In this document: piece after piece, positions 15,201 to 52,420 of the stretch
Layout of the letters: each line of letters starts with the position of its first letter
Position numbering within the stretch: the stretch's first letter is position 1
Source: a virus
Length of the DNA stretch: 60,797 nt
IMG/VR virus record: IMGVR_UViG_3300028549_000940
Location: 1-60,797 of that record
Strand: one strand, 5' to 3'
Notes under the pieces: model-generated
Told to the model about the DNA's origin: nothing
The model's database searches: none
What the model saw: the letters and a program-made list of their open reading frames with translations, nothing else
Made by a program: the position numbers and the translations under genes

Positions 15201-18200
15201 GATAGGATTAAGCACAAGGATGATCCTGCAACGCTTGAAACAATCGAATATTTAAGGTTTGGATACTACCCAAGCATATACGGAAGAGCTATCGTTGATA
15301 TTGCAAACAAAGCAAGCAGGAAAAGTGGACTAAAACAGGTTGCGGCCAGATGGGAGAAGAAGCTAAACAGTCTATCGGAATACGAGAACTACCAAGTTAC
15401 CTCAGATAGGGAGATCGACGAGCTTACAGAAATGTTTAATGCGCTTCCCGAAAAGGAAAAAAGTTACAGCCAAGTAGGCAACAGCCTCGCCAACCACAAA
15501 AGGCTAAAAGCAATGGGGATAGAAAACGACTCCATGCTTCGCGCTGTGCTAAGGGAGTATATTCAGTATCGCGGAAAAGTTAAAGAGGCAAACAAGGTAA
15601 AGGAGTTAGAACGGGCAATCGTAGGGAGAAACGTAGGTTTTGACTTCTTCCCCACCCCTTCTTCCGTGGCTGAATTGATGGTAAATGAGGCCGGTATTAC
15701 TGAAAACATGGACGTTTTAGAGCCAAGTGCCGGAAACGGAAACATTGCCGATGCAATAAAATCAAGCAATATCATTCCCGACGTAATCGAGCTATCCTCG
15801 GAGCTATCAAAAATTCTCGAAGCAAAAGGCTATCCGGTAGTTGGTAGCGATTTTATGTCCTACAACGAAAAGCAGTATGACCGAATAGTAATGAATCCCC
15901 CATTTTCTAACGGAGCAGATGGGGAGCATGTAATACATGCCTATGAACTGCTAAAACCCGGAGGAAGAATAGTTGCCATAGTTGGAGAGGGAACGTTTAT
16001 CAGAAGCGATAAAAAGGCGGTCAGTTTTAGGGAATGGCTCGACCAAGTAAACGGAAGCGAAGAGAGGTTGCCACAGGGAACCTTTAGCGATAAGAAGCTA
16101 TTAAATACAACTCAGGCCAACGCCAGAATGGTTGTGATTGACAAACCAGAAGCTTCTGTTCAGTTCCGCAAAACCTCACCATACTACGCCAACGCAGAGC
16201 GCGCACTTTCGTCCATTGAAATGAGCAAGGCCACCCCCGAGCAGTGGAAGGCCATGATACTAAAAGGAGGTGCTAAGGAAACAGAACTAAGGTGGATGAA
16301 TTGGGATGATTTCGCCAAGGATAAAAAGTCTATCACCAAGGAAGAGGTGCAGCAGTTTATCGATGGGCAAAAGGTAGTAGTTGAAGAGGTGGTAAAATCA
16401 CAATCAAAAACTATTACCAGAGAAGAAGCCTTAAAGGCGCTAGATAGAGGTATTGAGGTTTATGGAATACATCAAGACGGAAGCGAGTTTCTTATTGAAA
16501 ATCTTGATGATCTTGATAGAGCCGAAAAACTAGCTTTTGAAGAAGATTTAGCGCCTAGCGAAACCAAATACTCCCAATACACCACTCCCGGAGGAAAGAA
16601 CTACAAGGAGGTGTTACTTACGTTGCCAAATCAAACAGATGGTAAGATTTGGAAAATAAAGGCCGGAGATAATTCAACTCAAGTATGGAGCAAAGAATTT
16701 ACGAATGAAAGCGAATATCAATCGTATATTGAAGGATTAAAGCAAGACGGAATACCATTCAAAACTACTGTAAAAGGAAAAGACAATCCTGCATTCTCAT
16801 CTTCACACTATGACGAAAAGAACATTGCCGCGCATATTCGCCTTGCTGAATTTACCACCAAGGAAGGAAAGAGAGCGCTTCATGTTGAAGAGGTGCAGAG
16901 CGATTGGGCGCAGAAGGGAAAGAAGGATGGGTTTAAAACAAAAACAGAGGCACAGCTATACGCAGAACTGGAATCCAAGGGTATATATAGAGATAAAAAC
17001 TCTACTATGAATACATCTTTTGTTGATAAAGATGGAAGCCAAATCTATCACCCAAATCCCAATGTAAAGCGAAGTTCTACGCCAGAGCAAGATGCGGCCA
17101 TTGATGAGTTTTTTAAAGGACTAAAATCTGGTGACATTCCCGACATGCCCTTCAAGCAAACCGACCAATGGGTAGGATTAGGCATGAAGTGGGCTTTGAG
17201 GTATGCCGCCGAGAATGGGTTCGATGTGGTAACATGGACCACCGGAGAGCAACAGGCTGACAGGTATGATTTGAGTAAAAAAGTAGACAAAATTCATTAT
17301 AACAAAAATAATGGAATCTTAAGAGTTGACGGTATCAACGGAGAATCAATATTTAATGATTATGTAGAAGAAAATGGCATTCAAGATATAGTAGGAAAAG
17401 AAATAGCTGATAGAATTATCGCTAAATCAAACGACAACAAAGGAGAATATGTATCAATTTCAGGAGACGGGCTAAAGATTGGCGGCGAAGGAATGAAAGC
17501 CTTTTACGACAACATCGTTCCTTCGTGGGTGAACAAGTATGTAAAGAAGTGGGGCGCCAAAGCCGGAGCTACCGAGATTGACACCAAACCAGAATTAACC
17601 AACGATGGAATAAACCTCGACAGCGGAGAGATAAACCAACCAACAAATGGAAAGTTTACCACCGTCCATTCGGTAGAGGTTACTCCTTCAATGACCGTAT
17701 CTGTAATGGAAGGACAGCCGATGTTTAGAGCTTCTGAAAGGGTATTTGCTGATGTAACTAAAGAGCGCCACCACCAGCAAGTATCTAAAGCGGTAAACGA
17801 CCTTCAAGAGAAAGCACCCAACGCACTTCCGTTACGGGTTGTTCGGAATAATAAAGAGCTAAGCGAGGCCATAAAAGACCTTTCAAAAATAGAGCAAGAA
17901 GGCATCCAGGAAGCAATCAACAAAGGTTCTACCATATTTGGGTTTAAATCTAGTAAAGCTGTGTTTATTGTATCAGAAAGTATGGCTGATGAAAATGAAG
18001 CCATTCATACTTGGATACACGAGCAAGGAGGCCACTTAGGTATTGAATTGCTGATACCTAATGAAGATAAGCGAAATGCTTTCTTTGAGGCAGCATACGA
18101 AAGCGTAGGCGAAGAGCAGTTCAAAAAATTGCTTGATGAAATAGATCCAACCGGAGAGATTTACGCTACATACAAAAAAGCCAGCAAGGCTGAAAAAGGC

Positions 18201-21200
18201 TCAGAATACCTAGCTTTCTTGGCAGAAAAGATACTAAACCGGGAGCAAATGACACCTGATCAGTATAAGTTTTGGTCGGTTATTCGTCAAAAGATACTGG
18301 AACTCATAAATAGGGTATTGACTTCGCTCGATAAAAGAGCTACATTTACAGACAGAGAGTTGGCCTTAATTGTTAAGGCCGGAGCAAGTAAACTATATGA
18401 GGATAAGGGTAGATTTGAGACAGGAAACAATACTGAACAACAGGAAGGCGCGAATGCTTCCAACGGTTCAGCGCTACGAGGAGATCGTGGGGGTATTCTT
18501 GTCGTGCCCGAGATTCAGAATACGGTTAGTAGCCCCAATCTTCAAGCCATTCACGCTGAACGAGCATATCGAGAATTCGATCCCATCGCCACGCATAAAG
18601 TTGCCCATGACGCGCTCCTTCGCTCAGTCCCTAATTCAAAACTAGAAAGGCTTTCTTTCGGGCACGGGACCAACGTAGAGTTTTCAAACTTTGACATTAA
18701 GTATGCAGGAACCGGCACCGGGGAGAAGATTCACGGTTACGGGTTATACCTTTCCATCACCGCTAACGATCCAGCTGTTGCTGTAACCTACGCCAACAAG
18801 GTAGCATTTACCTCTGCCGAGGTAAGAAAGTATGCAGAAGGTATTAGCGAGAAATACGGGCATTTGGCTTTTAAAGCATTCGAAAAGGCTACCTACGACA
18901 CCAAGAGAGGGAAAGACCTGCTTACCTCCTTAAAAGATCGATATGCTGAAACGGGAAAACCGTATATCAAGAGCGTAATCGACCACGTAGAAAGCAACCC
19001 TATTCCATTTTCAAAAATCGTTTACTTCGGGCAAATGGAGAAACCAGACGGCACCCCATTTCACTTTATCGAGTGGGATACCGAGTTTGTCTATAAAGAC
19101 CAGTGGGACGCTATCACCAACGGATTAAATAGGGAAGGCCACAGCGTAGACGAATGGTTGGAAAGGTTGGGCGAAGAAGCATTGCTTGACGATGGACAGC
19201 TGAACGGAAAACAAGTTTACAGATCACTAGCTAAGCTACTAGCTGAAAAGAGTGACGATTCAAACGGTAGCCCAAAGAACGCTTCTGAGTTTCTATACAG
19301 GGCCGGTTTCGACGGGACTACCTACGCCGACAAGGAAATGGTAGACGGAAAGGAGAGGTATAACGTGTGCTCGTTTTCTGACAAACCTATTCATATTACC
19401 GAAACGGTGAAGTTTAGGAAGAAGGACAAGACCCCTGCCGAGATGTCTAGGCTTGATGTCCAGATTAGGAGATTTGCCGATAAAATGATCGCACAGAAAA
19501 ACGTCGAAAAAGAGATACTACGAAGAGGTGGAAGGATTACCGACGCCTCAAACGTTTCGATGCAAGAAAACCTATCCTCTTCCATCGCCAGCGAGGCCAT
19601 GAAGAAATTCAACAGAGAGATGGTTAAGCCGTATGTTGAAACTATTGTCTCGGTAATGCAAGAGGGAAACTTAACCCAAGAGGATATTGAGAAGTATCTT
19701 ATTGCCAAACACACACCCGAAAGAAACAAAACCTTTAGGGATTTAGGCAAGGAGGGAGATACCTTTTCGGGCATGGATGAGAAAGAGGCGCTTGATAGAG
19801 TTAAAGATGTAGAGGGGAAAGTATCTGGTAAGCTGATAAGCAAATTGTGGGAGAAAACCAACGCTATTACCAAGTTCGCTCTTGATTACGATTTAGCCTG
19901 TGGAAGAATAAGCAAGGAGACACACGACAGGTATACCGGACCAGATAACGAGTGGAAGCACTACGTTCCACTAAAGGGATGGGAAGCAGAAACCTTAGAT
20001 GATGCCGACTACGTAGACACCGGAAGCGGATCATTCACGCCTACCTTAAAGAAGGCCAAGGGCAGAACATCGGCCTCGGATACTCCTATTCACTACATGA
20101 TATCGGCTGCTTACTCATCGATTGCCGCCGGAGAAAAAAATAAGGTAAAGGCTGCTGCAGTTCGCTTGGCTACCAACAACCCGGATATGACCGATATATT
20201 CCACCTTAAAAAAGTATGGATGGTTAAATCTGGCTTGAAAGACGAAAACGGAAAAGACATTTACTTAGAAACTACTGAAAAGCCATCACCCGAGCAGTTT
20301 AACCAAGGATTGGTAAAAACCAAGATTGATACCCGGCATGAAGTAGGTAAGCCAAGAGATAAATCAAAACAAGAAGAAGTTACCGCTTACATCAAAGGGG
20401 AAAAATACACCGTAATCTACGAACCAAAGTATGTGGCAGCGGCCAATGCAATAAACAAGGTTACTGGTGAAAAGACAGCAAAGGCAAATGATGTTATACA
20501 GGGAACCATTGGCATATTTACCAGATGGTTGTCGGCAAACTTTACCTCTAAGAGTCCTGACTTTATCCTACCAAACTTTGTGCGTGACGTATCGTTTGGT
20601 TTTATGAGCGAAAGCCTTAAGGAAGGTAAAGGGTTAAAGTTTCTTGAGAACACCAGAAAGGGGATGGCTACCATTCACAGAGCCTACGCAAACAAGTTGG
20701 ACCCAAAGAATCCAATCGATGTTCACTACCAAAACTGGCTTAAGAACGGAGGTCCTACCGGGTTCGTTCACCTTGGATCGCTGGAGAGCATAAAGTCAAA
20801 CATTAACCTAGAGGTTAAACGGTTGATGAAAGACAATAGCTTGTGGGATAAAACAACCCAAAATAGGCTGTTCAAAAAGTTGGGTGCGATGATGGATTAC
20901 GCCGCAATCATGTCGGAAAATGCATCGCGGTTTGGGGTTTACCTTACCTCTATCGAGCAGGGTAAATCGGAAGCCAAGGCAGCGCACGACGGGAAAGAGG
21001 CTACGGTTAACTTTAATACCAAAGGGGAATGGTCTGGAATTATTGGAGGATTCTTTACGTTCTTCAACGCCTCAGTTCAGGGTGGAAAAACATTCGCTAA
21101 GCTAGGTTACGAAAACAAGGGTAAGATGGCTATTGCTGGAGCTTCGTTTATGGCCCTTGGATACCTTGTTGCTGCGATGAACAGGTTTATGGACGACGAC

Positions 21201-22214
21201 GAAGAGTATGATAAGGAAAACCCATACATCAGGGAAAACAACCTTATATTCAAGTCGGGCAAGAACCATGTTATGATACCACTCCCACACGGGTTTAGAA
21301 TGTTCTACGCGCTAGGGGTTATTATAAACGACTTGGAGCACGGAAAAGAAACTGTCAGCGGTGCCACCAGAAGAGGCATGTCGTCAGTAGTTAGCTCGTT
21401 CTCGCCTATTGACCCTGTTGGGTTAGTAGATAAAAAAGGAAGTTTATCTCTACGGCCTATAATTCCAACTACAATGATTCCAATATATGACATAGCTAAA
21501 AACGAAGATTTTGCCGGACGGAAGATACACAACGAGCCGTTTATGCTTTCTAAGGAAAATGTTCTTGCTGATAGAGGTCTTGGACTTAAAAATGTAAACC
21601 CGTTTTTACAGCAAGCATCTGACATATTGTTTGAACTAGGCGGTGGAGAATTAGATACCGGATTAAAGACAAAAATAGCTGACGGAAAAGAGTCTAGGAT
21701 AAAAGGAATATATGACCTTAACCCATCAGATGTTGAGCACATAATATCATTCTACACCGGAGGAAGAGGCCAGTTCTTTAACAACGTGATAAAGATGGGT
21801 AACTCTATTGTAGATCAATCAAAAGAGTATGCCAAGGACAAGGATTTGAAAAAAGCAGTTGACGGGTTGGATATAAACTCTATGCCAATACTTAGAAGGT
21901 TTTACAAAGAGCCTTGGGCCGGAAGCAACTACAAGGAATTTATCAAGATACGTGACGAAGTGGAGGCGTATAAAGCGACTCTCACGGAATACGAGAAGAT
22001 GATGGTAAACAACGTTCCTCGGTATATTGGCGCCATGACGGCTATGGACCTTCAGCAAAAGGCTATCATATACGAGTCATTCAATAAGAGTATTAAAGAA
22101 TTGAACGCGCAAGCCGATAACCTTATGGAATACTCCGACCCAAGCGCGATAATTGAGCAAAAAGACCAGCTAGTAAACCAGATGATAGAACAAGTTAACA
22201 ACCTGAAACGATGA
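9231..22214 (+). CDS. Giant multidomain (polyvalent-type) protein, 4327 aa, probably virion-packaged
   Basis: One uninterrupted 12,984-nt ORF. It contains hydrophobic segments, a P/E/V/K-rich spacer, a pyrophosphatase-like module, an EPSAGNG/NPPF methyltransferase module, an HVEEVQSDW region and C-terminal membrane helices. It overlaps the portal gene by ATGA. Confidence 0.9.
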   Translation: MPNDKLQQAASKFNQTIQGIHPELVIKNPESKEEWDNAIGSLKKSGINTSKIEGIYQLFGNGISEKVETPTPAEVKPPENMVDDLSTEEGKKRYYETHGAGTRLVEGVDAGFNQTTGGIRVGYGNVAKEMTGEAPLERVSRSIDLGRIPQGKTISEYESLLAKREEEFADLLKRRAAKYEFIRRDNKFSDNPTINTGEIAIPSNEWKENGAEIERQATDWDKRAGYDQKRYEISDLKEYIDLAKKEGVEGATKKAREAVKTVSWNDEVIAQGVKDIDVDAPKGTGLIYGVGVFSTQVVPVVASAAVAPFTAGTSLGWIPGAIGASTMGVLASGSAGQFMHEYDKYTSENNIEPDQGMKFGGAAAYFAFELIGEQMALDAALKKITSQYIKKSVIAGVPNKAMDLMQAYLEKNPAMAKKFIGAATDYIDNGVSEATSEVFTSLGQDLSYNISRDKEFQKGFKEVILDAYESAKGGFMMSGITSPMIKMGQHYQQKKGIRDNGITLVEDKVSGTPYQFMEANDDGSVLVMDKLGNEKKIPTENVGRIQQYDAKTYQELVQQHKEGKQITISNPGDILAQSNEQQMGNNFGKFADENGQMNMATDSQGNTLFITDIDEKTYGAVNAITGEKTTIAKTSVSSVGSENLGILSANSISQSLYTSGYLYGGQGKAVSIQEAVDDAISKGQTAETMAVTANEHMDMVAQAIQANDMAGAAENTIKANFYTNLAKELANITPKAEVVAGGTILFNGKQHNVISVNNGIAELEEVTEDGLGKSFDVPVEEIQQQIKPEVSELTVNPTVPEVAKTAQEPVLQEDLNTVNQEVAANIEPVPTEPKTYDIEVGKETVKAVQQDNGTFLLGKTYTKSELEKAGKLVEVLNKDYEDNGLSFEITPLPKQDPANPFEKPTFAIVAKPVIAKEEQVIPESVAEIPTPSKTEDNIPVSTQEEIKPVEAEVEPAAKETIPPIEEVAKESPKVDEVKPTKLDDTIKHLEVISEGEQVDKSPTEAQKEAGNYKKGHTVVQGFDITIENPEGSKRSGTDGGGNRWETTMHNTYGYFKRTKGKDGDQVDTFLGPNPETGKIYVVDQMDSNTGMFDEHKVMLGFNSEEQAKTAYLSNYSKGWSGLGAITEMGHDEFKGWLKDGDRTTVPASFNAEAERKATEHLEALKEPTIVPADPIVSHNNLVRQVKNYNGLTKYQRGTKANRRLFKTLSTLATRLEYGITQNTDGSLNVTKGGSKIRTITQKKTKEEINAHKLLTEYPQEFQDFANFIMGVDNLGYIDVDMDKKAVSQGIKNIKEGKKTVAANALLDELSAIYNLGEIHLSNNGEGTRVSLQEFRNLYSSEEKGAAEEQQSNELFEPTEEGEFVEDYNQTLLNAIADNSITKENVESFDWLLGEAMLNDIKTILYETEQGNNSSPSTGSEAGSAITGEKSDNAADRVDAGTKEVGSVEEPGLSEATGNQDGRDAANPEQVAEKGLTELQKSEIEAKTGELSRKIEAKRAELVAERGKLQAKKNELEGKKTTQTSLFGTEKPQFAGQLFDIPADFSQGSITRALKDLKSGITIKEKELTDLVTKRDEIVKSIVDSATAQQELDLSKEAIKEEKPTYQVPSSFTAQTISEFSDELDRGNINIDSFKKAFEVFLASKEAITQELSGKTKAELLSGMNAMGRYRYKNEKKDATVRAIYGSHLMTFSFGSLVYDFSKSTEEVVSEKVAKTTQADIDNHVSEVNKQIEDYKARVAEYKKALTNPETIAEFGIFIAKNGKDALSVEQKAAYDNLITDKVFDKRSAEAEKKAEVSKVEIGDTGMSLIETKHTKTGEPIFVVTLSNRVDSDTYKDLNAKAKKLGGYYSSFRGNGAIPGFTFKDKSQAENFMALKEGDVSTSSEEVKAEETKFKADKLRDAAQKMIEKADESLGRERLTNTYKRANEASRADANANEEKRIAETMVNIADAIDAGNVKLLNGVKAKTHIELLEMMVRTSKNQEIAAKYPNDRIKHKDDPATLETIEYLRFGYYPSIYGRAIVDIANKASRKSGLKQVAARWEKKLNSLSEYENYQVTSDREIDELTEMFNALPEKEKSYSQVGNSLANHKRLKAMGIENDSMLRAVLREYIQYRGKVKEANKVKELERAIVGRNVGFDFFPTPSSVAELMVNEAGITENMDVLEPSAGNGNIADAIKSSNIIPDVIELSSELSKILEAKGYPVVGSDFMSYNEKQYDRIVMNPPFSNGADGEHVIHAYELLKPGGRIVAIVGEGTFIRSDKKAVSFREWLDQVNGSEERLPQGTFSDKKLLNTTQANARMVVIDKPEASVQFRKTSPYYANAERALSSIEMSKATPEQWKAMILKGGAKETELRWMNWDDFAKDKKSITKEEVQQFIDGQKVVVEEVVKSQSKTITREEALKALDRGIEVYGIHQDGSEFLIENLDDLDRAEKLAFEEDLAPSETKYSQYTTPGGKNYKEVLLTLPNQTDGKIWKIKAGDNSTQVWSKEFTNESEYQSYIEGLKQDGIPFKTTVKGKDNPAFSSSHYDEKNIAAHIRLAEFTTKEGKRALHVEEVQSDWAQKGKKDGFKTKTEAQLYAELESKGIYRDKNSTMNTSFVDKDGSQIYHPNPNVKRSSTPEQDAAIDEFFKGLKSGDIPDMPFKQTDQWVGLGMKWALRYAAENGFDVVTWTTGEQQADRYDLSKKVDKIHYNKNNGILRVDGINGESIFNDYVEENGIQDIVGKEIADRIIAKSNDNKGEYVSISGDGLKIGGEGMKAFYDNIVPSWVNKYVKKWGAKAGATEIDTKPELTNDGINLDSGEINQPTNGKFTTVHSVEVTPSMTVSVMEGQPMFRASERVFADVTKERHHQQVSKAVNDLQEKAPNALPLRVVRNNKELSEAIKDLSKIEQEGIQEAINKGSTIFGFKSSKAVFIVSESMADENEAIHTWIHEQGGHLGIELLIPNEDKRNAFFEAAYESVGEEQFKKLLDEIDPTGEIYATYKKASKAEKGSEYLAFLAEKILNREQMTPDQYKFWSVIRQKILELINRVLTSLDKRATFTDRELALIVKAGASKLYEDKGRFETGNNTEQQEGANASNGSALRGDRGGILVVPEIQNTVSSPNLQAIHAERAYREFDPIATHKVAHDALLRSVPNSKLERLSFGHGTNVEFSNFDIKYAGTGTGEKIHGYGLYLSITANDPAVAVTYANKVAFTSAEVRKYAEGISEKYGHLAFKAFEKATYDTKRGKDLLTSLKDRYAETGKPYIKSVIDHVESNPIPFSKIVYFGQMEKPDGTPFHFIEWDTEFVYKDQWDAITNGLNREGHSVDEWLERLGEEALLDDGQLNGKQVYRSLAKLLAEKSDDSNGSPKNASEFLYRAGFDGTTYADKEMVDGKERYNVCSFSDKPIHITETVKFRKKDKTPAEMSRLDVQIRRFADKMIAQKNVEKEILRRGGRITDASNVSMQENLSSSIASEAMKKFNREMVKPYVETIVSVMQEGNLTQEDIEKYLIAKHTPERNKTFRDLGKEGDTFSGMDEKEALDRVKDVEGKVSGKLISKLWEKTNAITKFALDYDLACGRISKETHDRYTGPDNEWKHYVPLKGWEAETLDDADYVDTGSGSFTPTLKKAKGRTSASDTPIHYMISAAYSSIAAGEKNKVKAAAVRLATNNPDMTDIFHLKKVWMVKSGLKDENGKDIYLETTEKPSPEQFNQGLVKTKIDTRHEVGKPRDKSKQEEVTAYIKGEKYTVIYEPKYVAAANAINKVTGEKTAKANDVIQGTIGIFTRWLSANFTSKSPDFILPNFVRDVSFGFMSESLKEGKGLKFLENTRKGMATIHRAYANKLDPKNPIDVHYQNWLKNGGPTGFVHLGSLESIKSNINLEVKRLMKDNSLWDKTTQNRLFKKLGAMMDYAAIMSENASRFGVYLTSIEQGKSEAKAAHDGKEATVNFNTKGEWSGIIGGFFTFFNASVQGGKTFAKLGYENKGKMAIAGASFMALGYLVAAMNRFMDDDEEYDKENPYIRENNLIFKSGKNHVMIPLPHGFRMFYALGVIINDLEHGKETVSGATRRGMSSVVSSFSPIDPVGLVDKKGSLSLRPIIPTTMIPIYDIAKNEDFAGRKIHNEPFMLSKENVLADRGLGLKNVNPFLQQASDILFELGGGELDTGLKTKIADGKESRIKGIYDLNPSDVEHIISFYTGGRGQFFNNVIKMGNSIVDQSKEYAKDKDLKKAVDGLDINSMPILRRFYKEPWAGSNYKEFIKIRDEVEAYKATLTEYEKMMVNNVPRYIGAMTAMDLQQKAIIYESFNKSIKELNAQADNLMEYSDPSAIIEQKDQLVNQMIEQVNNLKR
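12230..12660 (+). other. Inorganic-pyrophosphatase-like module inside the giant protein
   Basis: GNYKKGHTVVQGFDITIENPEGSKRSG..YGYFKRTKGKDGDQVDTFLGP..DEHKVMLGF. DGDQVD resembles the family I PPase D-x-D-x-x-D signature. Confidence 0.45.
15630..16150 (+). other. AdoMet-dependent N6-adenine-type methyltransferase module inside the giant protein
   Basis: Motif I LEPSAGNGN (E codon at 15720) and motif IV NPPF (15894-15905) are both in frame and about 55 codons apart. Confidence 0.75.
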
Positions 22215-45104: not shown

Positions 45105-46262
45105 TTACTCCTCCTTGTTAAGCATTTGGTTTATTACTTTAAAAATCTCGTAAGCAACTTGTGGAACTATGGCGTTTCCGTAGGCTTTAAGTGATTCTGA
45201 TCTGTGCTTTGGAAAGGTAATTCCAACCAGTTCACTGGGAACCCCATCATCTCCGCAACGAACCGGGGATTGAGTTGGGAACTCTTGCCAGTTTGGCTGA
45301 AAAAATCGGGTAAACTGTTCGTTTCGTTTCTCCCCGCTTTTTCTAACGCTTCCTGACTTCGCCCCCCTTTGTAGTCTCTCGTTGCCGGAGTCGGTAGCAT
45401 TTTGTTTCTTGCATAGTTCGTTAATCCCCATTGTTTGCTCTTGTCGCTTCTCCTGTCCGAGCAATCCGGAGTAGGTAATAGGTTGCTGTAAGCAAGGTCT
45501 ATCAGTTTCGATGAATAGGCCACTCCCGACTTTCTTATCTTTCTCTTTCCATCTACCAACTGTGGTACTGCTTTTGCTTCCGAAGATGTTGGCGTCGGAA
45601 GAAAACCCCTCTGGTAGATAAACCCAGTTGCCACCTCCTGCGCCAGCGTTCCGCTGTTCCCGAACGTCTGGCTTTTCTTGCTCAGGTTCTCGCTGTAGGC
45701 ATCCATCGCGCAGGGTGTTTTTAGCAACAAACCAGACTCTATCTCGCTTATGGGGAGCGCCGACACCTGCAGCTGGAAGAATATACGGTTGTACTTCGTA
45801 GCCCTCAGCTTCCAGGTCAGCGCACACCTCTTCGAATACCAGCCCCCCGTTCCAATTAGTAAGGCCGAAAACATTTTCCCCCACGACGTAACCCGGCTGA
45901 ATTTCCCGTATTGCTCTAAGCATTTGCGGCCAGAGGTGTCGAGCATCTTCCTTTCCGAGTCTTTTTCCAGCCTGTGAGTAGGGTTGGCAAGGGAATCCCC
46001 CGGAGAGCACATCAACTCTGTTTCTCCAAATAGTGAAGTCTGTCTTGGTAATATCTCCATAGCATATAGCGTTAGGCCAGTAATACTGTAAAACTTTTTG
46101 TCCAAATTCATTCCACTCGCAGTGAAAAATATTCTCCCATCCAATCCATTGGGCTGCTAGGTCGAACCCTCCTATGCCGGAGAATAGCGAAGCGTGCTTT
46201 ACCATACTAGCGGCCCAAATATTAGCGCAATGGCTATAATAGTTGCTATCACGCATGTCCAT
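45105..46262 (-). CDS. DNA (cytosine-5)-methyltransferase (385 aa) with a low-complexity middle third
   Basis: Motif I LFSGIGGF, IV GGFPCQPYSQAGK, VI VGENV, VIII GAPHKRDRVWFVA and X AYGNAIVPQVA are all in this frame. Residues about 181-325 are K/R/E/Q/G-rich. Confidence 0.85.
   Translation of the reverse strand: MDMRDSNYYSHCANIWAASMVKHASLFSGIGGFDLAAQWIGWENIFHCEWNEFGQKVLQYYWPNAICYGDITKTDFTIWRNRVDVLSGGFPCQPYSQAGKRLGKEDARHLWPQMLRAIREIQPGYVVGENVFGLTNWNGGLVFEEVCADLEAEGYEVQPYILPAAGVGAPHKRDRVWFVAKNTLRDGCLQREPEQEKPDVREQRNAGAGGGNWVYLPEGFSSDANIFGSKSSTTVGRWKEKDKKVGSGLFIETDRPCLQQPITYSGLLGQEKRQEQTMGINELCKKQNATDSGNERLQRGAKSGSVRKSGEKRNEQFTRFFQPNWQEFPTQSPVRCGDDGVPSELVGITFPKHRSESLKAYGNAIVPQVAYEIFKVINQMLNKEE
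45167..46144 (-). CDS. Nested +1-frame ORF inside the C5-methyltransferase gene (325 codons; TTG at 46144, first ATG at 46111)
   Basis: No stop for 978 nt in the +1 frame. Three LPTP repeats (FLPTPTSSE, LLPTPDCSD, MLPTPATRDYKGG) and LNPRFVAEMMGFPVNW, which resembles MTase motif IX. Expression is unproven. Confidence 0.5.
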   Translation of the reverse strand: MDGRIFFTASGMNLDKKFYSITGLTLYAMEILPRQTSLFGETELMCSPGDSLANPTHRLEKDSERKMLDTSGRKCLEQYGKFSRVTSWGKMFSALLIGTGGWYSKRCALTWKLRATKYNRIFFQLQVSALPISEIESGLLLKTPCAMDAYSENLSKKSQTFGNSGTLAQEVATGFIYQRGFLPTPTSSEAKAVPQLVDGKRKIRKSGVAYSSKLIDLAYSNLLPTPDCSDRRSDKSKQWGLTNYARNKMLPTPATRDYKGGRSQEALEKAGRNETNSLPDFFSQTGKSSQLNPRFVAEMMGFPVNWLELPFQSTDQNHLKPTETP

Positions 46263-46326
46263 ATAAATGCTCTTCCTTCTGGAGGATCTACCATTTCTGA
46301 AATGAACGATCCTTGGTTGGCTTCTG

Positions 46327-46677
46327 TCATAACCTTGAAAAGTTAGTTACGTCCATCTTTTTATTTGCCTTCAAAAGAACCAGCTCATCTCTGCGATTTA
46401 GCAGCTCGGTAGCGGATTGAGTCTTGAACTTTCCAATAACTGACTCCAGCTCCTTCAATTTTTCCTCTGGCATTACCAGCTCTCCGTCGGTGATTAGCTC
46501 TGAGATGATGTCGTGTGCCCCCATGAGCACAATAACGTCTGCCGTGGACAGCTGAATAAATATTGGCTTTGGCGTTCCGCTGGCAAGTAAGTAGGTTGCT
46601 ACCACCAAAAGCCCTACAAAGGCTAAAACTCCTAAGATTGTAAGCTGAGTAATACTCAGCAAAATGATTGCAGTCAT
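46327..46677 (-). CDS. Membrane protein (116 aa)
   Basis: N-terminal hydrophobic segments ILLSITQLTILGVLAFVGLLVVATYLL. Confidence 0.5.
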   Translation of the reverse strand: MTAIILLSITQLTILGVLAFVGLLVVATYLLASGTPKPIFIQLSTADVIVLMGAHDIISELITDGELVMPEEKLKELESVIGKFKTQSATELLNRRDELVLLKANKKMDVTNFSRL

Positions 46678-46693
46678 AATTCTAAGATTTAGG

Positions 46694-47017
46694 TTAGATT
46701 TCGTTTTTAATTTTGTTGAAAAGCTTGATAAAATCCTTATCCGTTTCGAGTAGGTTATCCACCTTTTTCATCGCATAAAGCATTGTCGCGTGATCCAACC
46801 CTCCTAACAGGTTCCCTATTTTTGCGTAGGATAACCGAGAGTGTTTTCTGATCAGCACACACGCAACCTGTCTGGCCTCTACCACCTCCCGCTTTCTGGT
46901 TTTTACAACCATATCTTTGGGGGTTATCTTGAAGTTGCTGCACACGGCTTTGATTATGCTATCCTGCGTGGGTGCTTCTCGAAATATTCCAGGTATCGTC
47001 CAGTAGGATGGTGTCAT
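46694..47017 (-). CDS. DnaA C-terminal-domain-like HTH protein (107 aa)
   Basis: REVVEARQVACVLIRKHSRLSYAKIGNLLGGLDHATMLYAMKKV matches DnaA domain IV. Confidence 0.7.
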   Translation of the reverse strand: MTPSYWTIPGIFREAPTQDSIIKAVCSNFKITPKDMVVKTRKREVVEARQVACVLIRKHSRLSYAKIGNLLGGLDHATMLYAMKKVDNLLETDKDFIKLFNKIKNEI

Positions 47018-47580
47018 AGCTTCATTTTTATGATATTGTAATTCTTTGGAGCCGACATAAGTATTTCCTTGAAAACGCTGTCAGGGTTTAACTTTTCTTC
47101 GAAACACCTAGCAACTTCTTCTATTGAGATTAAGTTACCCAGCTCATACCCATCGCACATCTTAGCCATTTTCCATAGGCAAGCCTTTGATGTTGGAGTT
47201 TCTGCCGATCCTGTTTTGAAGTTACTAAGAATAGCATCCTGCTTCGCGCGATCAGCGGTGAAGTTGTTTCGCTTCTCTTCATCTAAGGCTATAGCCAAGG
47301 CAGAAATTTCAGAAACGATCATTTTCGGGGAAACCTTAAACGTAGTGTTTGACTTTTCTGAAATAGGCTTCAAAATTAGCCTATCGAACGCCTTGCCTAT
47401 GATTGATACGTCACAGGCTCTGATCTTCAAATCTGAGGCACACAGCTGGGCAACACGTTCGCTTATGTAGGTTGCATCTTCTGAGTTAAAGTTCTGCCCT
47501 AGGTCTCGGTATAGCACAGGTAGCTTTAGTTGAACTAAATCCATTAAGTCTACTAAGCTTGTTTTCTCGATTGCTCCCAT
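47014..47580 (-). CDS. Hypothetical replication-module protein (188 aa)
   Basis: ATGA coupling to the downstream gene. No confident family. Confidence 0.5.
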   Translation of the reverse strand: MGAIEKTSLVDLMDLVQLKLPVLYRDLGQNFNSEDATYISERVAQLCASDLKIRACDVSIIGKAFDRLILKPISEKSNTTFKVSPKMIVSEISALAIALDEEKRNNFTADRAKQDAILSNFKTGSAETPTSKACLWKMAKMCDGYELGNLISIEEVARCFEEKLNPDSVFKEILMSAPKNYNIIKMKL

Positions 47581-48386
47581 TGTAAGTCAGTTTCTTTTTG
47601 TGACATTGCCTTTACTTTATTCGGGTTTGTAGTAGGTTTTTGTGTAGGTAACTCAAATAGGCTATGCGCCTCTTTTTCTATCACGTTATCTACTACTTTC
47701 ATGGCTATAGATGGGTCTCTTCCTGACAGCTGTTCTAGTTTTTTATAGACCTGCTCTATCGCCTGTTGTGTTTTGTAGGGTTCTTTTAGTTCAAACTTGT
47801 AGTTAAGCCATTTTCTAAAAGCATCCTTAGCCCATTCTTCCAAAAATTGAAAATCAAATTTTGAGTAGTAGGGGGAGCGCGGTGTATTCTCTTCTTTACT
47901 TTGCTCTTCTTTACTTTCCTTTACTTTACTTTCATTTTCTTTACTTTCATTTTCTTTACTTTCATTTAATTTAATAGTTGAACGTCCGTTGAACGTCCGT
48001 TGAACATCTGTTGAGCGTCCGTTGATATTATTTCTTTTTTCAGCAGATGCCTTTCCTGCGTTACTGGCCTTTTCTCTTTTGTTGTCTAATTTTTCCATTC
48101 GCTCACATAACGATTCAGAGTAGAAACACTCACTGTCTTCGGTGAAGGTAAATAACCTGAAATCCTCTATGATTGATTTAACTTTAGCTGAGTCTACACG
48201 TAAGTCATATGCGATCAAATTATAATCCCTAACGCACATGTATTCGCTGCTTTCTCTCAATTTTTCAACAATTGCCCAGTATAGTCCGTATCCCTCCCAT
48301 CCGTGTTTCATTCTTAACGATAGCGTCTTCTCGTCATTTCTAGCGTTACTATCGTGTGTGAAGTAGTATGCATCTTTTTTCTTCAT
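47553..48386 (-). CDS. DUF4373-like replication initiation/organiser protein (277 aa from ATG 48386; the ORF is open to 48407)
   Basis: N-terminal MKKKDAYYFTHDSNARNDEKTLSLRMKHGWEGYGLYWAIVEKL. The gene body contains tandem repeats and iterons. Confidence 0.65.
   Translation of the reverse strand: MKKKDAYYFTHDSNARNDEKTLSLRMKHGWEGYGLYWAIVEKLRESSEYMCVRDYNLIAYDLRVDSAKVKSIIEDFRLFTFTEDSECFYSESLCERMEKLDNKREKASNAGKASAEKRNNINGRSTDVQRTFNGRSTIKLNESKENESKENESKVKESKEEQSKEENTPRSPYYSKFDFQFLEEWAKDAFRKWLNYKFELKEPYKTQQAIEQVYKKLEQLSGRDPSIAMKVVDNVIEKEAHSLFELPTQKPTTNPNKVKAMSQKETDLQWEQSRKQA
47924..47968. repeat. Three tandem 15-bp repeats CTTTACTTTCATTTT (encoding ESKEN repeats), within a wider CTTTACTTT-rich tract from about 47891
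   Basis: Read directly: copies at 47924-47938, 47939-47953 and 47954-47968. The last copy has one mismatch. Confidence 0.85.
47977..48026. repeat. Four and a half tandem 11-bp repeats GTTGAACGTCC (iteron-like; candidate replication origin)
   Basis: GTTGAACGTCC GTTGAACGTCC GTTGAACATCT GTTGAGCGTCC GTTGAT read directly. The period is about one helical turn, and the array lies inside the replication gene. Confidence 0.6.
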
Positions 48387-48387
48387 A

Positions 48388-48720
48388 TCAAGGAAGTTTT
48401 GATGCATTACACTTCCGACATAGCGTTGTTAAATTGCTTAGTTTGTTTAATCCTTCAAAATCCAAGCGATCTACAACATACTGGTAAACAGATACAACAT
48501 GATCTACTTGTAAGTATTCTGTAGATGAGCATTTAGTGCATTTATGCCCATCTCTACTAAAAATATAATTTCTAACATCATTCCTTCTGATGAATGATGA
48601 TGATGAATTTCTAGCAGCTTGATACCTTACCGAAAAATCACAATTATTCATGTTGTCCATAGACCTATTCATTGGTTTCCATTTAGGAAATCCTAAACCG
48701 GATTTTATTTGACGTGCCAT
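48388..48720 (-). CDS. HNH endonuclease (110 aa)
   Basis: DGHKCTKCSS..LQVDHVVSV..NLTTLCRKCNASK is an HNH motif with zinc-binding cysteines. Confidence 0.8.
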   Translation of the reverse strand: MARQIKSGLGFPKWKPMNRSMDNMNNCDFSVRYQAARNSSSSFIRRNDVRNYIFSRDGHKCTKCSSTEYLQVDHVVSVYQYVVDRLDFEGLNKLSNLTTLCRKCNASKLP

Positions 48721-48723
48721 AAC

Positions 48724-49128
48724 CTATAACGGTAAATCGTTAGCCATTTCAGGTTCCGCGTCGAAATATGGCTCATTTGGCTTTTCTTCCTTAGCCTCTT
48801 TTTTCGATCCACAGAAAGCAAATGTGTTCAGCTTCGTTTCGGTAACATACCGTTTTATGCCCTCTTTATCTTCGTATGAGCGAGTTTTTACCTCGCCGAA
48901 GATATTTAGCTCAGCGCCCTTTTTTACGTATTTCTCGATGGTCTCTGCGGTAGATCCCCACACTACAATATTGTGCCAATCGGTTGATTCTACTTTTACA
49001 CCATCTTTTGAAGTGTATGATGCGTTGGTGGCGAACGGGAATGATACTACGGTGCTGTTTTCGGTGTGCCTTACTTCGGGGTCTTTTCCGACAAACCCGT
49101 GCAAAATGTGCAGGTTGTTTGAGTTCAT
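48724..49128 (-). CDS. ssb: Single-stranded DNA-binding protein (134 aa)
   Basis: OB-fold pattern GFVGKDPEVRHT..WHNIVVWG..GAELNIFGEVKTRSYEDKEG and an acidic tail ending in NDLPL. Confidence 0.85.
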   Translation of the reverse strand: MNSNNLHILHGFVGKDPEVRHTENSTVVSFPFATNASYTSKDGVKVESTDWHNIVVWGSTAETIEKYVKKGAELNIFGEVKTRSYEDKEGIKRYVTETKLNTFAFCGSKKEAKEEKPNEPYFDAEPEMANDLPL

Positions 49129-49146
49129 AATTATTTAGGTTAAAGG

Positions 49147-49593
49147 TTAGTTGTTTACTCTCGATAACGATGCAAGCGTTTGAATGTCGCTGGCTTCTTT
49201 CCACGCCTTATTTATTTTGAATAGGCCCTCGTTTTGCTTGGCAATGTGCTTAATGGCCTTGATGCACTCATCGGGGGAAAGCGTTTCTACATCAACGCCG
49301 CGATAGAGCACGTTCATTTTTGAGAAATCAAGCTCGTTGGATGGGTTGCACTTGATGTTGTATGAGTTTTCTAACTCAAGAAGTCCGTCAGCATCAAACG
49401 CATCACTCGAAGTAAGCGGATACTCTTTAACGAATTTTTCACTTACAGCTTCTTGTGAAACAATGGTTTCTGATTGCAGTTGCTCCCACCTTAGCAGGAA
49501 CAGCTTCACAAAAACCCATGCAAAAAATGCCACTAATACAGCTATTGAAATGCCAACTATTAGCATAACGATAATAAATTCTTGAACTGTCAT
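49147..49593 (-). CDS. Membrane-anchored hypothetical protein (148 aa)
   Basis: N-terminal TM FIIVMLIVGISIAVLVAFFAWVFV. Confidence 0.5.
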   Translation of the reverse strand: MTVQEFIIVMLIVGISIAVLVAFFAWVFVKLFLLRWEQLQSETIVSQEAVSEKFVKEYPLTSSDAFDADGLLELENSYNIKCNPSNELDFSKMNVLYRGVDVETLSPDECIKAIKHIAKQNEGLFKINKAWKEASDIQTLASLSRVNN

Positions 49594-49604
49594 GATCGTA
49601 GGTT

Positions 49605-49865
49605 TTAGTTAAAATACTTGGTTAGGTAAGCCTCAATATCAACCTTCTCGTGCCGGTTGGAGTTAACTACATTTACCTTCCACAGGAGCGGGTAAACATT
49701 TAGCTTTCGGTAGTTCGCTTTTGAAAGCCGGAAGTGGTAGGCGGTGATGGCCTCGATGTCCACCGATAGCTTTGCAGTAAGCGCGAGTAGCAGCTGCGTG
49801 TTGGCCTCTAGCTTTGTCTTATTCCTAAGCGCTCTGGCCTCGTTGTTTTGAGTAATGGTTGTCAT
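49605..49865 (-). CDS. Hypothetical protein (86 aa)
   Basis: ATGA coupling with the helicase gene end. Confidence 0.45.
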   Translation of the reverse strand: MTTITQNNEARALRNKTKLEANTQLLLALTAKLSVDIEAITAYHFRLSKANYRKLNVYPLLWKVNVVNSNRHEKVDIEAYLTKYFN

Positions 49866-52420
49866 AGGTTATATTTAGTTTTAAAAAGGTTCATTACTCC
49901 GTGAACTATTTCTGCCTCTATTTCTTCGTCCGATCCATAGACTGTGTTGGCTACCTCTCGCTTCTCTTCAATAATTCGGTAAACCCAGTTATCGATGGTT
50001 CCTTTCCCTATAAAGTAAGGACAGGTAACAGCGTTTTTTTGACCTATCCGGTGGGCGCGATCCTCGGCCTGATCCATAATTGCCGGGTGCCAACCCATTT
50101 CAATAAAGGCTACCGTTGACGAAGCTGTCAGGGTAATACCTACCCCGGCGGCTGCAATGGAGCAGAAAATAAGCCGCGTTTTATCATCTTTTTGGAACTT
50201 ATCTACGTTGTCCTGTCGATCTGCTATTGAGTCTTTTCCGGTGACGGAAACGCTACCGGGGAACCGGTGCTTTAATTCTCCCAACACCTCTCTTAGGTGT
50301 CCGAATACTATTAGCTTCTCACCGTTGGCTAAAGTGTCTTTAATGAACTCTGTAACGGCCTCGATCTTACCCCTAGCTGAGATGTTCTTTAGTATCCCGA
50401 TGCGAACCATTGCCTCGCTGCGCATCTTTCTTTTAATGTCGTGCTCTGATTCGTTCTTATACTCCCTTAAGTATTCAGCCAAGTCTCTTTCGGCGGTGTC
50501 ATACTCCTCTTGGGTGGTGATGTCGCAAAGGATTACTTGTCTGGTTTTTTCGGGTAGGTCGGTAACCTCCGATTTCTCCCTACGGTAGTAGCAGGTTGAA
50601 AAAAGTAAGTCTCTAAGCTCCTCCAGCTTCGATTCGTCCTTAGTATCGTAGTAGTCGCTGAAGTGTGCGTAGCCTCCGAACTTGTCTATCTGGTTGATGA
50701 TTGCCAACTGCGAGGCTAGGTCTCTTGGAGTATTAATTACCGGTGTTCCAGTGAGTAAAATTTGATACTCCTTTCCGTAGGCTATTCCGCGAACGAACTT
50801 GCTTTGCTGCGCTGAAGGATCCTTGCAATTAGATACCAGTATTCCGTCGGCAAAGTAGTTGTGCGTTGTTTCTATTTCGAGGTCATATACTGGCGTATTA
50901 TTCCAATAACCATTGGCAAGTTCTCTAGAATTTCCTTGTTCGTAAACCTCACAACTCTCCACCCTAACGAGTTCAATACCTCTGTTTTCAATTTGTCTAG
51001 TGCCTTTACTTTTGTTGTGCCGTGAGACATTCCGTCTACTTCTATCGAAAGAAAAATATCCGGTATTGCAATGTCTGACTTGTAGCAACCTGGAATGTGT
51101 TGGTATAAGTGTTTTACAGAACTCGTTGCTATTGGATACTCTAGCGCACTTTCCGGCAAGTTTAGCTCTCTCCAAAGTGACAGTTGAGGTATGGTAAGTT
51201 GTCCATTCCCTCCTCTGTTTTTGAATGCACGACCTTTTAATTTTGCTGATACTTTCTCTATAATACCTGGCATCTGCATTGGATTGTTTAATTTCATCCT
51301 GTCTGAATGCATCTTCTTTAGCACAGGGTCTAGCATTTGCTTTGTAGTAGAAACACGTAATTTTTCTATTTTTTGCTCTGATCTGCTGGACAATATTATT
51401 TCCGGTTGTCTTACTCTCCATTTTGCAGAACAACTTTGACTGCAAAAACGAATCTTTGCAGATTTCTTTCCGTGAAATTTGTGCGTAAATGACTCCCCGC
51501 AATAAGCACACTTCTTCTCTACTAAAATAACCGGATGTAAGTCTTTGCGTTTCTGTATTACATCTGGACGAGAATTTACCGAAGTTGAAGCACAACTTCT
51601 TGAACAGAATATCGCTGTCGTTTTCCCCGCTTTCTTTGTTGAGAATGTCTTTCCGCAGTAAATACAAATACGATCCACTTTTGATTTCTTGTATTTCTTC
51701 GAGCCGTCCGGCATTAGTATATACTTTGTGTCCTTCTGTGGCGTAGAGCTCTCCTCTTGTATGCTTGATTCTAAATAATCTTCGTTGTCCAACTTCATTT
51801 GTCCATATATTTAAAATGCGTTTATATACTATTGTGTTTGTATCAATATCAAACGACGTAACTAAAATGTCTTTAATGTTGTTTTTTGCAATGTCACCAA
51901 TGCTAATCACTCCTTTATTTGTAGATATCATGGTGTTATGAGGAAAGCATCTGTGGCCCTCGTCGATTACTACTGCCTTAAATAGATTTATCGTTGATTT
52001 AAACCGAACATCTGCCAACCTCCACCCTTTTTTGGTTGGCATTTCAGCCACAAAATACTTCTTCAGCGACTCGTAGTTCACAATAAACACGTTGGCAATA
52101 CCGGCCTGAAAGAATAGGTGCCAGGTGTTCACCATTGAGTCGGATAAGATCATTGGTTTTAAATCGGTCCACATGGTAATCTCACGCTCCCAATTCAGCT
52201 TCAAAGAGGAGGGGCAAACCACTAAGCATGGGATAGCGTTGGCTCCTTTGATGGCCGCAATGGCCTGTAGGGTCTTACCAAGACCCATTTGGTCGCCAAC
52301 AATAACTCTCTTATTCTTTAGGATATATGCTGTTCCCGGCTTTTGGTAGGAGAACATTTCTCCTTTCAGTGGGATAGTAATTTCTAGCTCTGGTAGTGGG
52401 TAGTTGTTCTGGAAGTTCAT
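49862..52420 (-). CDS. SNF2-family helicase precursor containing an intein (852 aa; about 478 aa after splicing)
   Basis: Motif I GDQMGLGKT, motif II VVIDEGHR, then an intein, then CKDPSAQQSKF. C-terminal motifs V/VI AAGVGITLT and QAEDRAHRIGQ. Confidence 0.9.
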   Translation of the reverse strand: MNFQNNYPLPELEITIPLKGEMFSYQKPGTAYILKNKRVIVGDQMGLGKTLQAIAAIKGANAIPCLVVCPSSLKLNWEREITMWTDLKPMILSDSMVNTWHLFFQAGIANVFIVNYESLKKYFVAEMPTKKGWRLADVRFKSTINLFKAVVIDEGHRCFPHNTMISTNKGVISIGDIAKNNIKDILVTSFDIDTNTIVYKRILNIWTNEVGQRRLFRIKHTRGELYATEGHKVYTNAGRLEEIQEIKSGSYLYLLRKDILNKESGENDSDILFKKLCFNFGKFSSRCNTETQRLTSGYFSREEVCLLRGVIYAQISRKEICKDSFLQSKLFCKMESKTTGNNIVQQIRAKNRKITCFYYKANARPCAKEDAFRQDEIKQSNADARYYRESISKIKRSCIQKQRREWTTYHTSTVTLERAKLAGKCARVSNSNEFCKTLIPTHSRLLQVRHCNTGYFSFDRSRRNVSRHNKSKGTRQIENRGIELVRVESCEVYEQGNSRELANGYWNNTPVYDLEIETTHNYFADGILVSNCKDPSAQQSKFVRGIAYGKEYQILLTGTPVINTPRDLASQLAIINQIDKFGGYAHFSDYYDTKDESKLEELRDLLFSTCYYRREKSEVTDLPEKTRQVILCDITTQEEYDTAERDLAEYLREYKNESEHDIKRKMRSEAMVRIGILKNISARGKIEAVTEFIKDTLANGEKLIVFGHLREVLGELKHRFPGSVSVTGKDSIADRQDNVDKFQKDDKTRLIFCSIAAAGVGITLTASSTVAFIEMGWHPAIMDQAEDRAHRIGQKNAVTCPYFIGKGTIDNWVYRIIEEKREVANTVYGSDEEIEAEIVHGVMNLFKTKYNL
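50828..51949 (-). mobile_element. Intein (374 codons) inserted after helicase motif II
   Basis: Verified codons: Cys1 TGC at 51949-51947, terminal Asn AAT at 50830-50828, and +1 Cys TGC at 50827-50825. Blocks CFPHNTMISTNKGVISIGDI, LYATEGHKVYT and VYDLEIETTHNYFADGILVSN. Confidence 0.85.
50872..51798 (-). CDS. Nested +1-frame endonuclease gene inside the intein: zinc-ribbon repeats plus a DUF559/Vsr-like PD-(D/E)XK domain (308 aa)
   Basis: ATG at 51798 verified. CIYCGKTF..FCSRSC and CAYCGESF..FCSQSC repeats. C-terminal YKSDIAIPDIFLSIEVDGMSHG..LGWRVVRFTNKEI. The frame offset from the helicase start is 622 nt. Confidence 0.75.
   Translation of the reverse strand: MKLDNEDYLESSIQEESSTPQKDTKYILMPDGSKKYKKSKVDRICIYCGKTFSTKKAGKTTAIFCSRSCASTSVNSRPDVIQKRKDLHPVILVEKKCAYCGESFTHKFHGKKSAKIRFCSQSCSAKWRVRQPEIILSSRSEQKIEKLRVSTTKQMLDPVLKKMHSDRMKLNNPMQMPGIIEKVSAKLKGRAFKNRGGNGQLTIPQLSLWRELNLPESALEYPIATSSVKHLYQHIPGCYKSDIAIPDIFLSIEVDGMSHGTTKVKALDKLKTEVLNSLGWRVVRFTNKEILENLPMVIGIIRQYMTSK

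Follow-up and report, generated by a model that had tools for sequence, protein, structure and literature searches.

M.EcoHK31I is a naturally heterodimeric C5 cytosine methyltransferase whose β subunit is encoded wholly within the α gene, in a different frame, carries motif IX and is required for activity; β can start from internal Met codons, loss of these start codons abolishes activity, and β supplied in trans restores it (PMC2836561, PMC3404938). A second two-subunit C5 methyltransferase, M.AquI, is split in the variable region, and its small subunit comprises motifs IX and X (PMC3404938). A literature search for a general account of nested genes in methyltransferases returned these two enzymes only. 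Here we compare these enzymes, and several intein systems, with two long same-strand nested genes in the viral record IMGVR_UViG_3300028549_000940, whose full length of 60,797 nucleotides (nt) is referred to below as the window. One of the nested genes lies within a dcm gene and the other within the gene for a SNF2-family helicase.

For the helicase locus, the relevant precedents are inteins with an endonuclease outside the host frame. A 2025 survey by Gosselin, Arsenault and Gogarten described actinobacteriophage inteins whose endonuclease occupies a different frame or the opposite strand (endonuclease VII-like proteins in frame 3, LAGLIDADG and VSR-like proteins in antisense) in genes for DNA polymerase, minor capsid protein, terminase and thymidylate synthase, and proposed that they originate when a free-standing endonuclease gene invades an intein (bioRxiv 10.1101/2025.01.02.630785). 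Dassa et al. (2009) reported fractured genes, in which a free-standing Vsr-like endonuclease gene lies between the halves of a split intein (PMC2677866), and in ShiLan an HNH endonuclease that is not in frame has been described within a phage methylase (PMC11855218).

We consider it probable that the two loci of the window are unrelated dual-coding modules, each inherited as a unit and each of an already described kind: a methyltransferase of the M.EcoHK31I type and an intein bearing an endonuclease. Both loci lie on the minus strand, and coordinates given below are positions in the window. The dcm open reading frame (ORF) spans 45105-46262 (385 amino acids, aa) and encloses a +1 ORF at 45167-46144 (325 aa from a TTG, 978 nt) at an offset of 118 nt. 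The SNF2 ORF spans 49862-52420 (852 aa) and encloses a +1 ORF at 50872-51798 (308 aa from an ATG, 927 nt) at an offset of 622 nt; either offset leaves a remainder of 1 after division by 3. Re-reading of the ORFs bore out everything that a first-pass annotation of this DNA had reported of their geometry, namely the positions, the shared strand, the +1 phase, the two offsets and the spans of more than 900 nt.

That annotation had also argued against coincidence. We shuffled each gene 2000 times under each of three schemes (codon order; synonymous permutation with the protein kept; synonymous resampling with the codon usage of the window). The observed +1 stretches, 329 open codons in dcm and 312 in SNF2, were reached in none of the 2000 shuffles of any scheme, with dcm peaking at 216, 261 and 227 codons and SNF2 at 161, 221 and 216 codons. 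Between 8 and 12 stops would be expected in the +1 frame of each overlap, and 16-24 in the host frame given the nested protein; neither frame has any. Among the 37 window ORFs that reach 150 aa, an alternate same-strand frame exceeding 111 open codons occurs at these two loci alone, the remaining 33 ORFs having alternate-frame open stretches of 111 codons or fewer. Moreover, the overlaps are kept open in relatives, in about 95% of some 160 dcm loci and in seven of seven intein loci, at protein identities of 30-55%. In these genes stops are generally scarcer in the +1 than in the +2 frame, but the shuffles and the short alternate stretches of the other window ORFs refute an origin in chance or codon usage, and we assign next to no probability to the idea that ORFs of this length are simply what the composition of the genome would produce. 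Both nested genes are non-random and conserved, and the case against coincidence stands. The longest ORF of the window by far, a 4327-aa frame on the plus strand (9231-22214), has an alternate-frame maximum of 91 codons and provides an internal control.

The host frame of the dcm locus encodes the large subunit, α. Homologues indicate a start at ATG 46205 (MVKHASLFSGIGG), giving a product of 366 aa (45105-46205). The frame is open for 19 further codons upstream of this ATG (MVKHASLFSGIGG; 46205-46262), and the length of 385 aa is probably an over-extension. The α protein matches PF00145 (E 5e-45) and TIGR00675 and aligns with M.HhaI over residues 5-161 (E 6e-20). By sequence comparison it carries motifs I-VIII and X in a single frame: motif I (FSGIGG) at 46167-46184, motif IV (GFPCQ) at 45984-45998, motif VI (ENV) at 45870-45878, motif VIII (HKRDRVWF) at 45729-45752 and motif X (GNAIVP) at 45162-45179, all in frame 0. 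Between motifs VIII and X lies a linker (45282-45719; α residues ~163-308) whose wobble position is that of the +1 frame. This linker is stop-free yet without amino-acid constraint, and it occupies the position of the target-recognition domain of a monomeric enzyme. An AlphaFold2 model of α built with 64 homologues has predicted local distance difference test (pLDDT) values of 85-95 over residues 1-168 and about 90 in the C-terminal helices, and values of 31-46 with no secondary structure over the 166 residues from 169 to 334; the linker is thus predicted to be disordered. In a monomeric C5 enzyme the small domain sits where α has these low-pLDDT residues. The earlier description of the host frame over the overlap as linker-like holds only for α residues ~163-308; it fails for the first ~110 nested codons, which overlie motifs IV-VIII.

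The nested dcm gene encodes the small subunit, β. Although its frame is open from TTG 46144, most homologues start at a Met aligned with ATG 46060 (MEILPRQTSLF), and because of this alignment we take the gene to be, probably, 297 aa long (45167-46060). The offset from the α start at 46205 to this ATG is 145, again +1. No Pfam or NCBIfam family matched β, and neither a single-sequence nor a profile search with β returned a match in the PDB. It does match phrog_1008 (E 5e-27), annotated as DNA methyltransferase, and 1129 database proteins, nearly all of them hypotheticals of 200-560 aa without a Pfam assignment. The family alignment has three parts: an N-terminal module with an invariant L.G...W.S..C.LTW, one to several (L)PTPxxxD modules, and a C-terminal SQLNPxFVxEMMGFPxxW. 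In the window the N-terminal module overlaps α motifs IV-VIII (TSGRKC at 45920-45937; LLIG..W.S..C.LTWK at 45809-45862), four (L)xTPxxxD/E modules follow at 45701-45730, 45578-45604, 45455-45481 and 45374-45400, and the C-terminal segment that aligns to M.HhaI, QLNPRFVAEMMGFPVNW, lies at 45227-45277.

The identity of this last segment emerged from a chimera in which the modules and C-terminus of β were placed between motifs I-VIII and motif X of α. Searched against the PDB, the chimera aligns β QTGKSSQLNPRFVAEMMGFPVNW with residues 267-293 of M.HhaI (VNGKTRKLHPRECARVMGYPDSY), which constitute motif IX; the aligned β residues are QTGKSSQLNPRFVAEMMGFP, in the segment QLNPRFVAEMMGFP, and motif X of α follows directly. 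The second-domain score against M.HhaI is 10.8 bits for the chimera (total 85.7), compared with -3.8 bits for α alone (total 74.5). Thus, as judged from these alignments, β supplies the motif IX that α is missing, which is difficult to reconcile with the earlier treatment of the nested ORF as an extra gene: it encodes a motif of the same methyltransferase. In addition, β appears to carry the target-recognition modules, given the frame-specific selection described below and the predicted disorder of α.

We considered the conservation of the pair in a sample of 80 viral loci with the nested protein and in a second sample, 82 loci drawn from annotated phages and bacterial genomes. No stop interrupts the Dcm frame in 76 of the 80 and 76 of the 82, respectively. 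In the viral loci the +1 stretch is open for 207-354 codons, with 9-37 stops in the +2 frame; in the second sample the nested frame is +1 to the Dcm frame in all 82 loci, and the Dcm frame spans the nested ORF in 76. Counts of mismatches by codon phase, made on pairwise nucleotide alignments of 70 distinct genes, show where each frame is selected. Between the gene start and the end of motif VIII, the most variable codon position is host position 3 (~0.45-0.55 versus 0.1-0.2); from about 30 nt past motif VIII, host position 1, which is nested position 3, takes its place (0.3-0.55 versus 0.1-0.2); and about 60 nt before the nested stop the wobble returns to host position 3 for motif X. Because the most variable codon position switches twice, purifying selection acts first on frame 0, then on +1 and finally on frame 0 again, with both frames open throughout. 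Host synonymous variability dips locally exactly at the invariant C.LTW of β, and the N-terminal module of β is therefore constrained as well.

A survey covered 112 distinct α genes. The β frame is open for at least 200 aa in 111 of them, contains the motif IX pattern in 101, and has its first ATG 60-90 nt upstream of the PCQ codons in 97; the β stop lies within ~40 nt of motif X. The lengths of α and β are correlated (r = 0.72), so that module gains lengthen both frames. A β protein standing alone or fused in frame was not seen in this family, apart from P0056 (431 aa), in which the N-terminus of α, from motif I to ...IDILTG, is joined to the β frame (DSPANRT...) at a G-run before PCQ. P0056 is the sole PF00145-positive protein among the 120 best β homologues and looks, from its sequence, like the product of a 1-nt indel, which may be an error of sequencing or a frameshift variant that occurs naturally. 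A further irregular case is a viral contig (L079, 2793-4274) in which a second dcm/beta-like stretch, partial and out of phase with the first, comes after an alpha-type dcm ORF and could be a tandem or rearranged copy.

The order of selected frames also bears on the main rival for this locus, a double programmed frameshift, in which ribosomes would shift by +1 after motif VIII and by -1 before motif X to make one canonical chain. Both the 0, +1, 0 selection and the motif order I-VIII, target-recognition domain, IX, X would suit such a chain. However, frame 0 stays open through an unconstrained linker, which would be needless if ribosomes left it, and the +1 frame, which contains a positionally conserved ATG, is already open ~85-110 codons before the switch. 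Nor are X_XXY_YYZ heptamers enriched at the second switch, where they occur in 13 of 51 genes against 12 in the control phase, and the characterised M.EcoHK31I works as two polypeptides (PMC2836561). We consider frameshifting very improbable. The run of motifs through frames 0, +1 and 0 is equally what two compensating indels would leave, and the P0056 fusion is consistent with an indel of 1 nt; one might accordingly suspect paired frameshift errors, or mutations that displaced the middles of the genes and left pseudogenes. Such artefact or decay is scarcely credible when the same phase is found in hundreds of independent assemblies across several phyla and both frames are free of stops for ~900 nt, a state that decay does not preserve.

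What the sequences suggest instead is an M.EcoHK31I-type C5 cytosine methyltransferase made of two subunits. In this model, the two parts of α would be connected by a loop of ~145 residues free of sequence constraint, and β would be translated separately from the positionally conserved ATG ~70 nt upstream of the PCQ codons. Its N-terminal module, ~110 residues over α motifs IV-VIII, probably docks β to α, and the remainder would contribute motif IX and the (L)PTPxxxD array, serving as the target-recognition region. Together α and β would form the active enzyme, which might then protect the phage DNA from host restriction.

As in M.EcoHK31I, the large subunit has motifs I-VIII together with X, and the small gene lies fully inside it, in another frame of the same strand, and carries motif IX; the dcm locus of the window has every sequence-level hallmark of that design, as compared through its published description rather than by direct homology. 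The window β differs in being longer (297 aa, in a family ranging over 120-360 aa), in starting upstream of motif IV and hence overlapping the catalytic motifs, and in apparently containing the target-recognition modules. M.EaeI, an isoschizomer of M.EcoHK31I, is a naturally heterodimeric C5 methyltransferase as well. M.AquI shares with the window locus a natural split inside the variable region and an activity that needs two polypeptides, but its subunits cover successive parts of the enzyme, whereas in the window motif X is back in the large frame and the small gene is nested.

Several points weigh against this model, beginning with the comparison by description just noted. We infer the independent translation of the nested ORFs and the assembly of α with β from sequence. 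The predicted target-recognition domain of M.EcoHK31I has been assigned to α and not to β. Against the Pfam DNA_methylase profile, the chimera gains 12 bits for the window gene and loses 5 bits for the corresponding gene of Paenibacillus phage Leyra; of the two comparisons, the one with PDB sequences was the more informative. An AlphaFold2 model of β alone, from a 64-sequence alignment, is poor (pLDDT 55, predicted template modelling score 0.27) and does not confirm the fold of β or its target-recognition role; a poor model is compatible with a subunit that depends on its partner, and proves nothing. Finally, Bacteroidota do without usable Shine-Dalgarno signals by which the internal starts of the window might be recognised.

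The pair is widely distributed. In a scan of one genome per species we found 283 dcm pair loci, and the best 80 of these 283 come mostly from Bacteroidota, the others including Burkholderiaceae, Sphingomonadaceae, Gammaproteobacteria, Chlamydiia, Saccharimonadales, Calothrix, Chlorobiota and Phycisphaerales. Overall, the known range of the α/β design takes in Bacteroidota, Proteobacteria, Chlamydiia, Cyanobacteria and Saccharimonadales, together with phages that infect Firmicutes (Paenibacillus and others). The pair is present in phages of Paenibacillus larvae, and some of their records annotate both coding sequences (LEYRA_61 and LEYRA_62), although the two Paenibacillus phage genomics papers in which both nested coding sequences are annotated do not discuss the nesting. 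In Leyra (L081, 1560-1581) a GGGAGG lies in the α coding sequence 13 nt before the β ATG, and GGGAGGGG lies 5 nt upstream of the α start; in a host that uses Shine-Dalgarno signals, the GGGAGG is a possible internal ribosome-binding site.

The host frame of the second locus encodes a SNF2-family helicase precursor of 852 aa (49862-52420; PF00176 and PF00271) with exteins at residues 1-157 and 532-852 and a predicted spliced product of 478 aa. The intervening 374 aa (host residues 158-531; 50828-51949) follow the DEGHR of helicase motif II. When they are deleted, the host aligns in one piece, with 93-99% coverage and 47-54% identity, to intein-less helicases of the Bacteroides phages BS-TP3 and BKO1-TP3 and of faecal phage contigs; because these homologues align straight through the junction, we identify the insertion as a 374-aa intein at DEGHR/C. 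The host frame encodes its splicing blocks, which comprise an N-terminal Cys (CFPHNTM, 51929-51949), block B with TxxH (ATEGHKV, 51722-51742), the C-terminus ...THNYFADGILVSN (50828-50890) and, beyond it, Cys+1 (CKDPSAQ, 50807-50827). The nested ORF overlaps these splicing blocks only at its ends, and its structured part overlaps an unconserved middle of the host frame. In contrast to the view that the host frame here becomes low-complexity sequence, its K/R/E/S/Q content (0.42 in the linker) is only slightly higher than that of the nested frame (0.37); what sets it apart is poor conservation, not composition.

We infer that this class 1 intein splices, from the need for a working helicase, from its site in motif II and from the open host frame at all seven loci where it was found. 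The intein of 374 residues would interrupt motif II, the middle of its host frame would serve as an open, unconstrained tether only, and the precursor would splice to yield the working helicase. Two details tell against splicing: the terminal Asn is preceded by Ser where His is usual (VSN/C), the relatives L178 and L168 having VHN, and the match to PF14890 (Intein_splicing) scores 31.1 bits, below the cut-off of 35.8.

The nested +1 gene (50872-51798, 308 aa) encodes, as its sequence matches indicate, a homing endonuclease. It scores 40.4 bits against PF04480 (DUF559; E 3e-10, cut-off 20.6), and a profile of 17 homologues matches the PDB entries 3HRL (E 1e-13) and 3R3P (E 5.5e-4), the latter being I-Bth0305I, an intron-encoded homing endonuclease (PMC3239194). 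Two zinc-finger-like CxxC...CSxSC modules (51586-51666 and 51418-51510) and an RMKxNNPM/RGGNGQ region (51199-51300) precede a DUF559/Vsr-like nuclease core, YKSDIA...IEVDGMSH...GWRVVRF (50944-51084). In these comparisons the protein is a DUF559/Vsr-like endonuclease of the I-Bth0305I family, and its residues D242, E253, D255, H259 and D268 are invariant across the 17 homologues. It would be translated separately from the +1 frame and would cleave intein-less alleles, into which the whole composite would then be copied; the protein of the window could, however, be inactive.

Relatives of this endonuclease are few. The database holds 18 homologous proteins only, a scan of viral contigs found none, and a metagenome scan found four, of which one was useful; genomic contexts were taken from exact-protein look-ups. 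Six other divergent loci (L084-86, L087, L168, L176, L177 and L178) have the endonuclease in the +1 frame of an intein in motif II of a superfamily 2 (SF2) helicase, at endonuclease identities of 34-57% and GC contents of 0.32-0.65. None of the seven loci has a stop in the host frame, and over the same nucleotides the BLOSUM62 score of the endonuclease frame is from 2 to more than 20 times that of the host frame. The frame-specific conservation for which the first-pass annotation had called is thus seen at both loci, as +1 selection in the codon-phase counts for dcm and as the better-conserved endonuclease frame here. Because the phase is the same in every intein relative found, these comparisons point to a mobile composite that has spread as a single unit rather than being invented repeatedly. 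One of the six, the phage contig L087 (3163-6759, GC 0.65), has a 1199-aa helicase ORF with the intein, and its +1 endonuclease, at 430 aa, has extra zinc-finger-like modules.

Homing endonuclease genes often degenerate once they are fixed, and the endonuclease of the window might likewise be a decaying remnant that no longer homes, or its intein might be fixed and immobile. The invariant catalytic-core residues and the far better conservation of the endonuclease frame argue otherwise, as does the sporadic distribution of the intein, which is absent from the closest helicase homologues of the window phage. We regard a remnant as unlikely, though less so than the other alternatives. Most of the contigs that carry endonuclease homologues (L084-L086, L177, L178 and others) are only 1.0-1.3 kb long, about the length of the intein, and begin or end near its boundaries, which suggests that the sampled populations are polymorphic for the presence of the intein and that assemblies break there, and likewise fits an element still in motion. 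Two free-standing relatives of the endonuclease were also found. One of them (L173-L175; 35% identity) lies directly upstream of an uninterrupted DEAD/SNF2 helicase gene, with an overlap of 4 nt, and possibly represents the ancestral free-standing state.

The helicase element shares with the inteins of the 2025 survey the division between a splicing domain and exteins in one frame and an endonuclease in another, the structureless in-frame middle, and the tendency to be missed by annotation pipelines. It differs in having a VSR-like/DUF559 endonuclease on the same strand, in the +1 frame, in motif II of an SF2/SNF2 helicase, in a Bacteroides-type phage and with relatives of varied GC content; it is a new combination within a known class. 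With the fractured genes it has in common the endonuclease family, the location of the inteins in phage DNA-metabolism genes and, as predicted for the window, the production of the endonuclease as a separate protein, but in the window the host frame is unbroken and the intein contiguous, with the overlapping frame kept open. The window intein is therefore the unbroken counterpart of the fractured arrangement. ShiLan offers another same-strand, out-of-frame endonuclease ORF with a host frame open through the insert; there, however, the methylase insert has no splicing domain, whereas in the window the nested ORF of the methylase is no endonuclease and it is the endonuclease case that has splicing blocks.

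The first-pass annotation had read the two loci as one architecture used twice, the product of a recurrent route or expression mechanism by which this phage lineage packs extra genes into permissive linkers. Their shared +1 phase and strand, and their position no more than 6 kb apart in one operon, lend this idea its appeal. Yet each module is found singly in unrelated genomes: the dcm design is spread over several phyla, the intein composite recurs in unrelated phages that differ widely in GC content, and the Bacteroides phage BKO1-TP3 has the α/β dcm with an intein-less helicase. The nested ORF of dcm, moreover, belongs to the same enzyme as its host, the constant phase among the intein relatives indicates the spread of one composite and not repeated invention, and an excess of other nested ORFs was not seen in the window. 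We therefore find a shared, lineage-specific route very improbable. The two nested genes are unrelated: one encodes the methyltransferase's second subunit, the other a selfish homing endonuclease out of frame in an intein that is itself selfish; as the phase is constant within each family, it has been inherited and not reinvented. The two modules are separate, with separate histories, and entered the replication operon independently, and their closeness is uninformative about any shared mechanism.

As examples of long phage genes nested on the same strand, both loci are clean and statistically solid; the selected frame can be followed stretch by stretch in each, and both illustrate how gene callers lose or fragment one partner of a nested pair. 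On this last point the earlier expectation was sound: the public gene calls for L087 keep the endonuclease and fragment the intein-bearing helicase, and β-frame proteins, more than 1100 of them, stand in the databases as Pfam-less hypotheticals. An M.EcoHK31I-like nested design appears to be common and routinely half-annotated. The specificity part of such enzymes may sit in the unannotated frame, in which case prediction of methylation from the annotated protein would fail. The helicase locus adds a same-strand, Vsr-like case to the inteins with out-of-frame endonucleases and ties that class to the fractured genes with split inteins.

A broader joint reading, to which we give somewhat less than an even chance, is that the dcm pair represents a very large and old cross-phylum family of nested pairs and the SNF2 element a contiguous missing link. 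The size of the dcm family is supported by its presence in over 280 species genomes and over 100 viral contigs and by over 1100 clusters of β proteins, and its small subunit may combine motif IX with a variable array of 1-7 target-recognition modules and a docking module over the catalytic motifs. If this were so, specificity would evolve by the gain and loss of modules within a stretch obliged to remain open in both frames, database entries by the thousand would each cover only half an enzyme, and the SNF2 element would link ordinary inteins with the fractured-gene split inteins that carry Vsr-like endonucleases.

Both loci belong to a minus-strand replication module that comprises genes for an integrase, a YopX-like protein, dcm, a DnaA-C-like protein, a replication initiator, an HNH endonuclease, SSB, the SNF2 helicase and NinG. 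The HNH gene (48388-48720, minus strand; PF01844, E 1e-7) is free-standing, lies between the replication initiator and SSB, and shares 20 nt with the start region of the upstream gene; it is a second candidate mobile endonuclease of the same operon.

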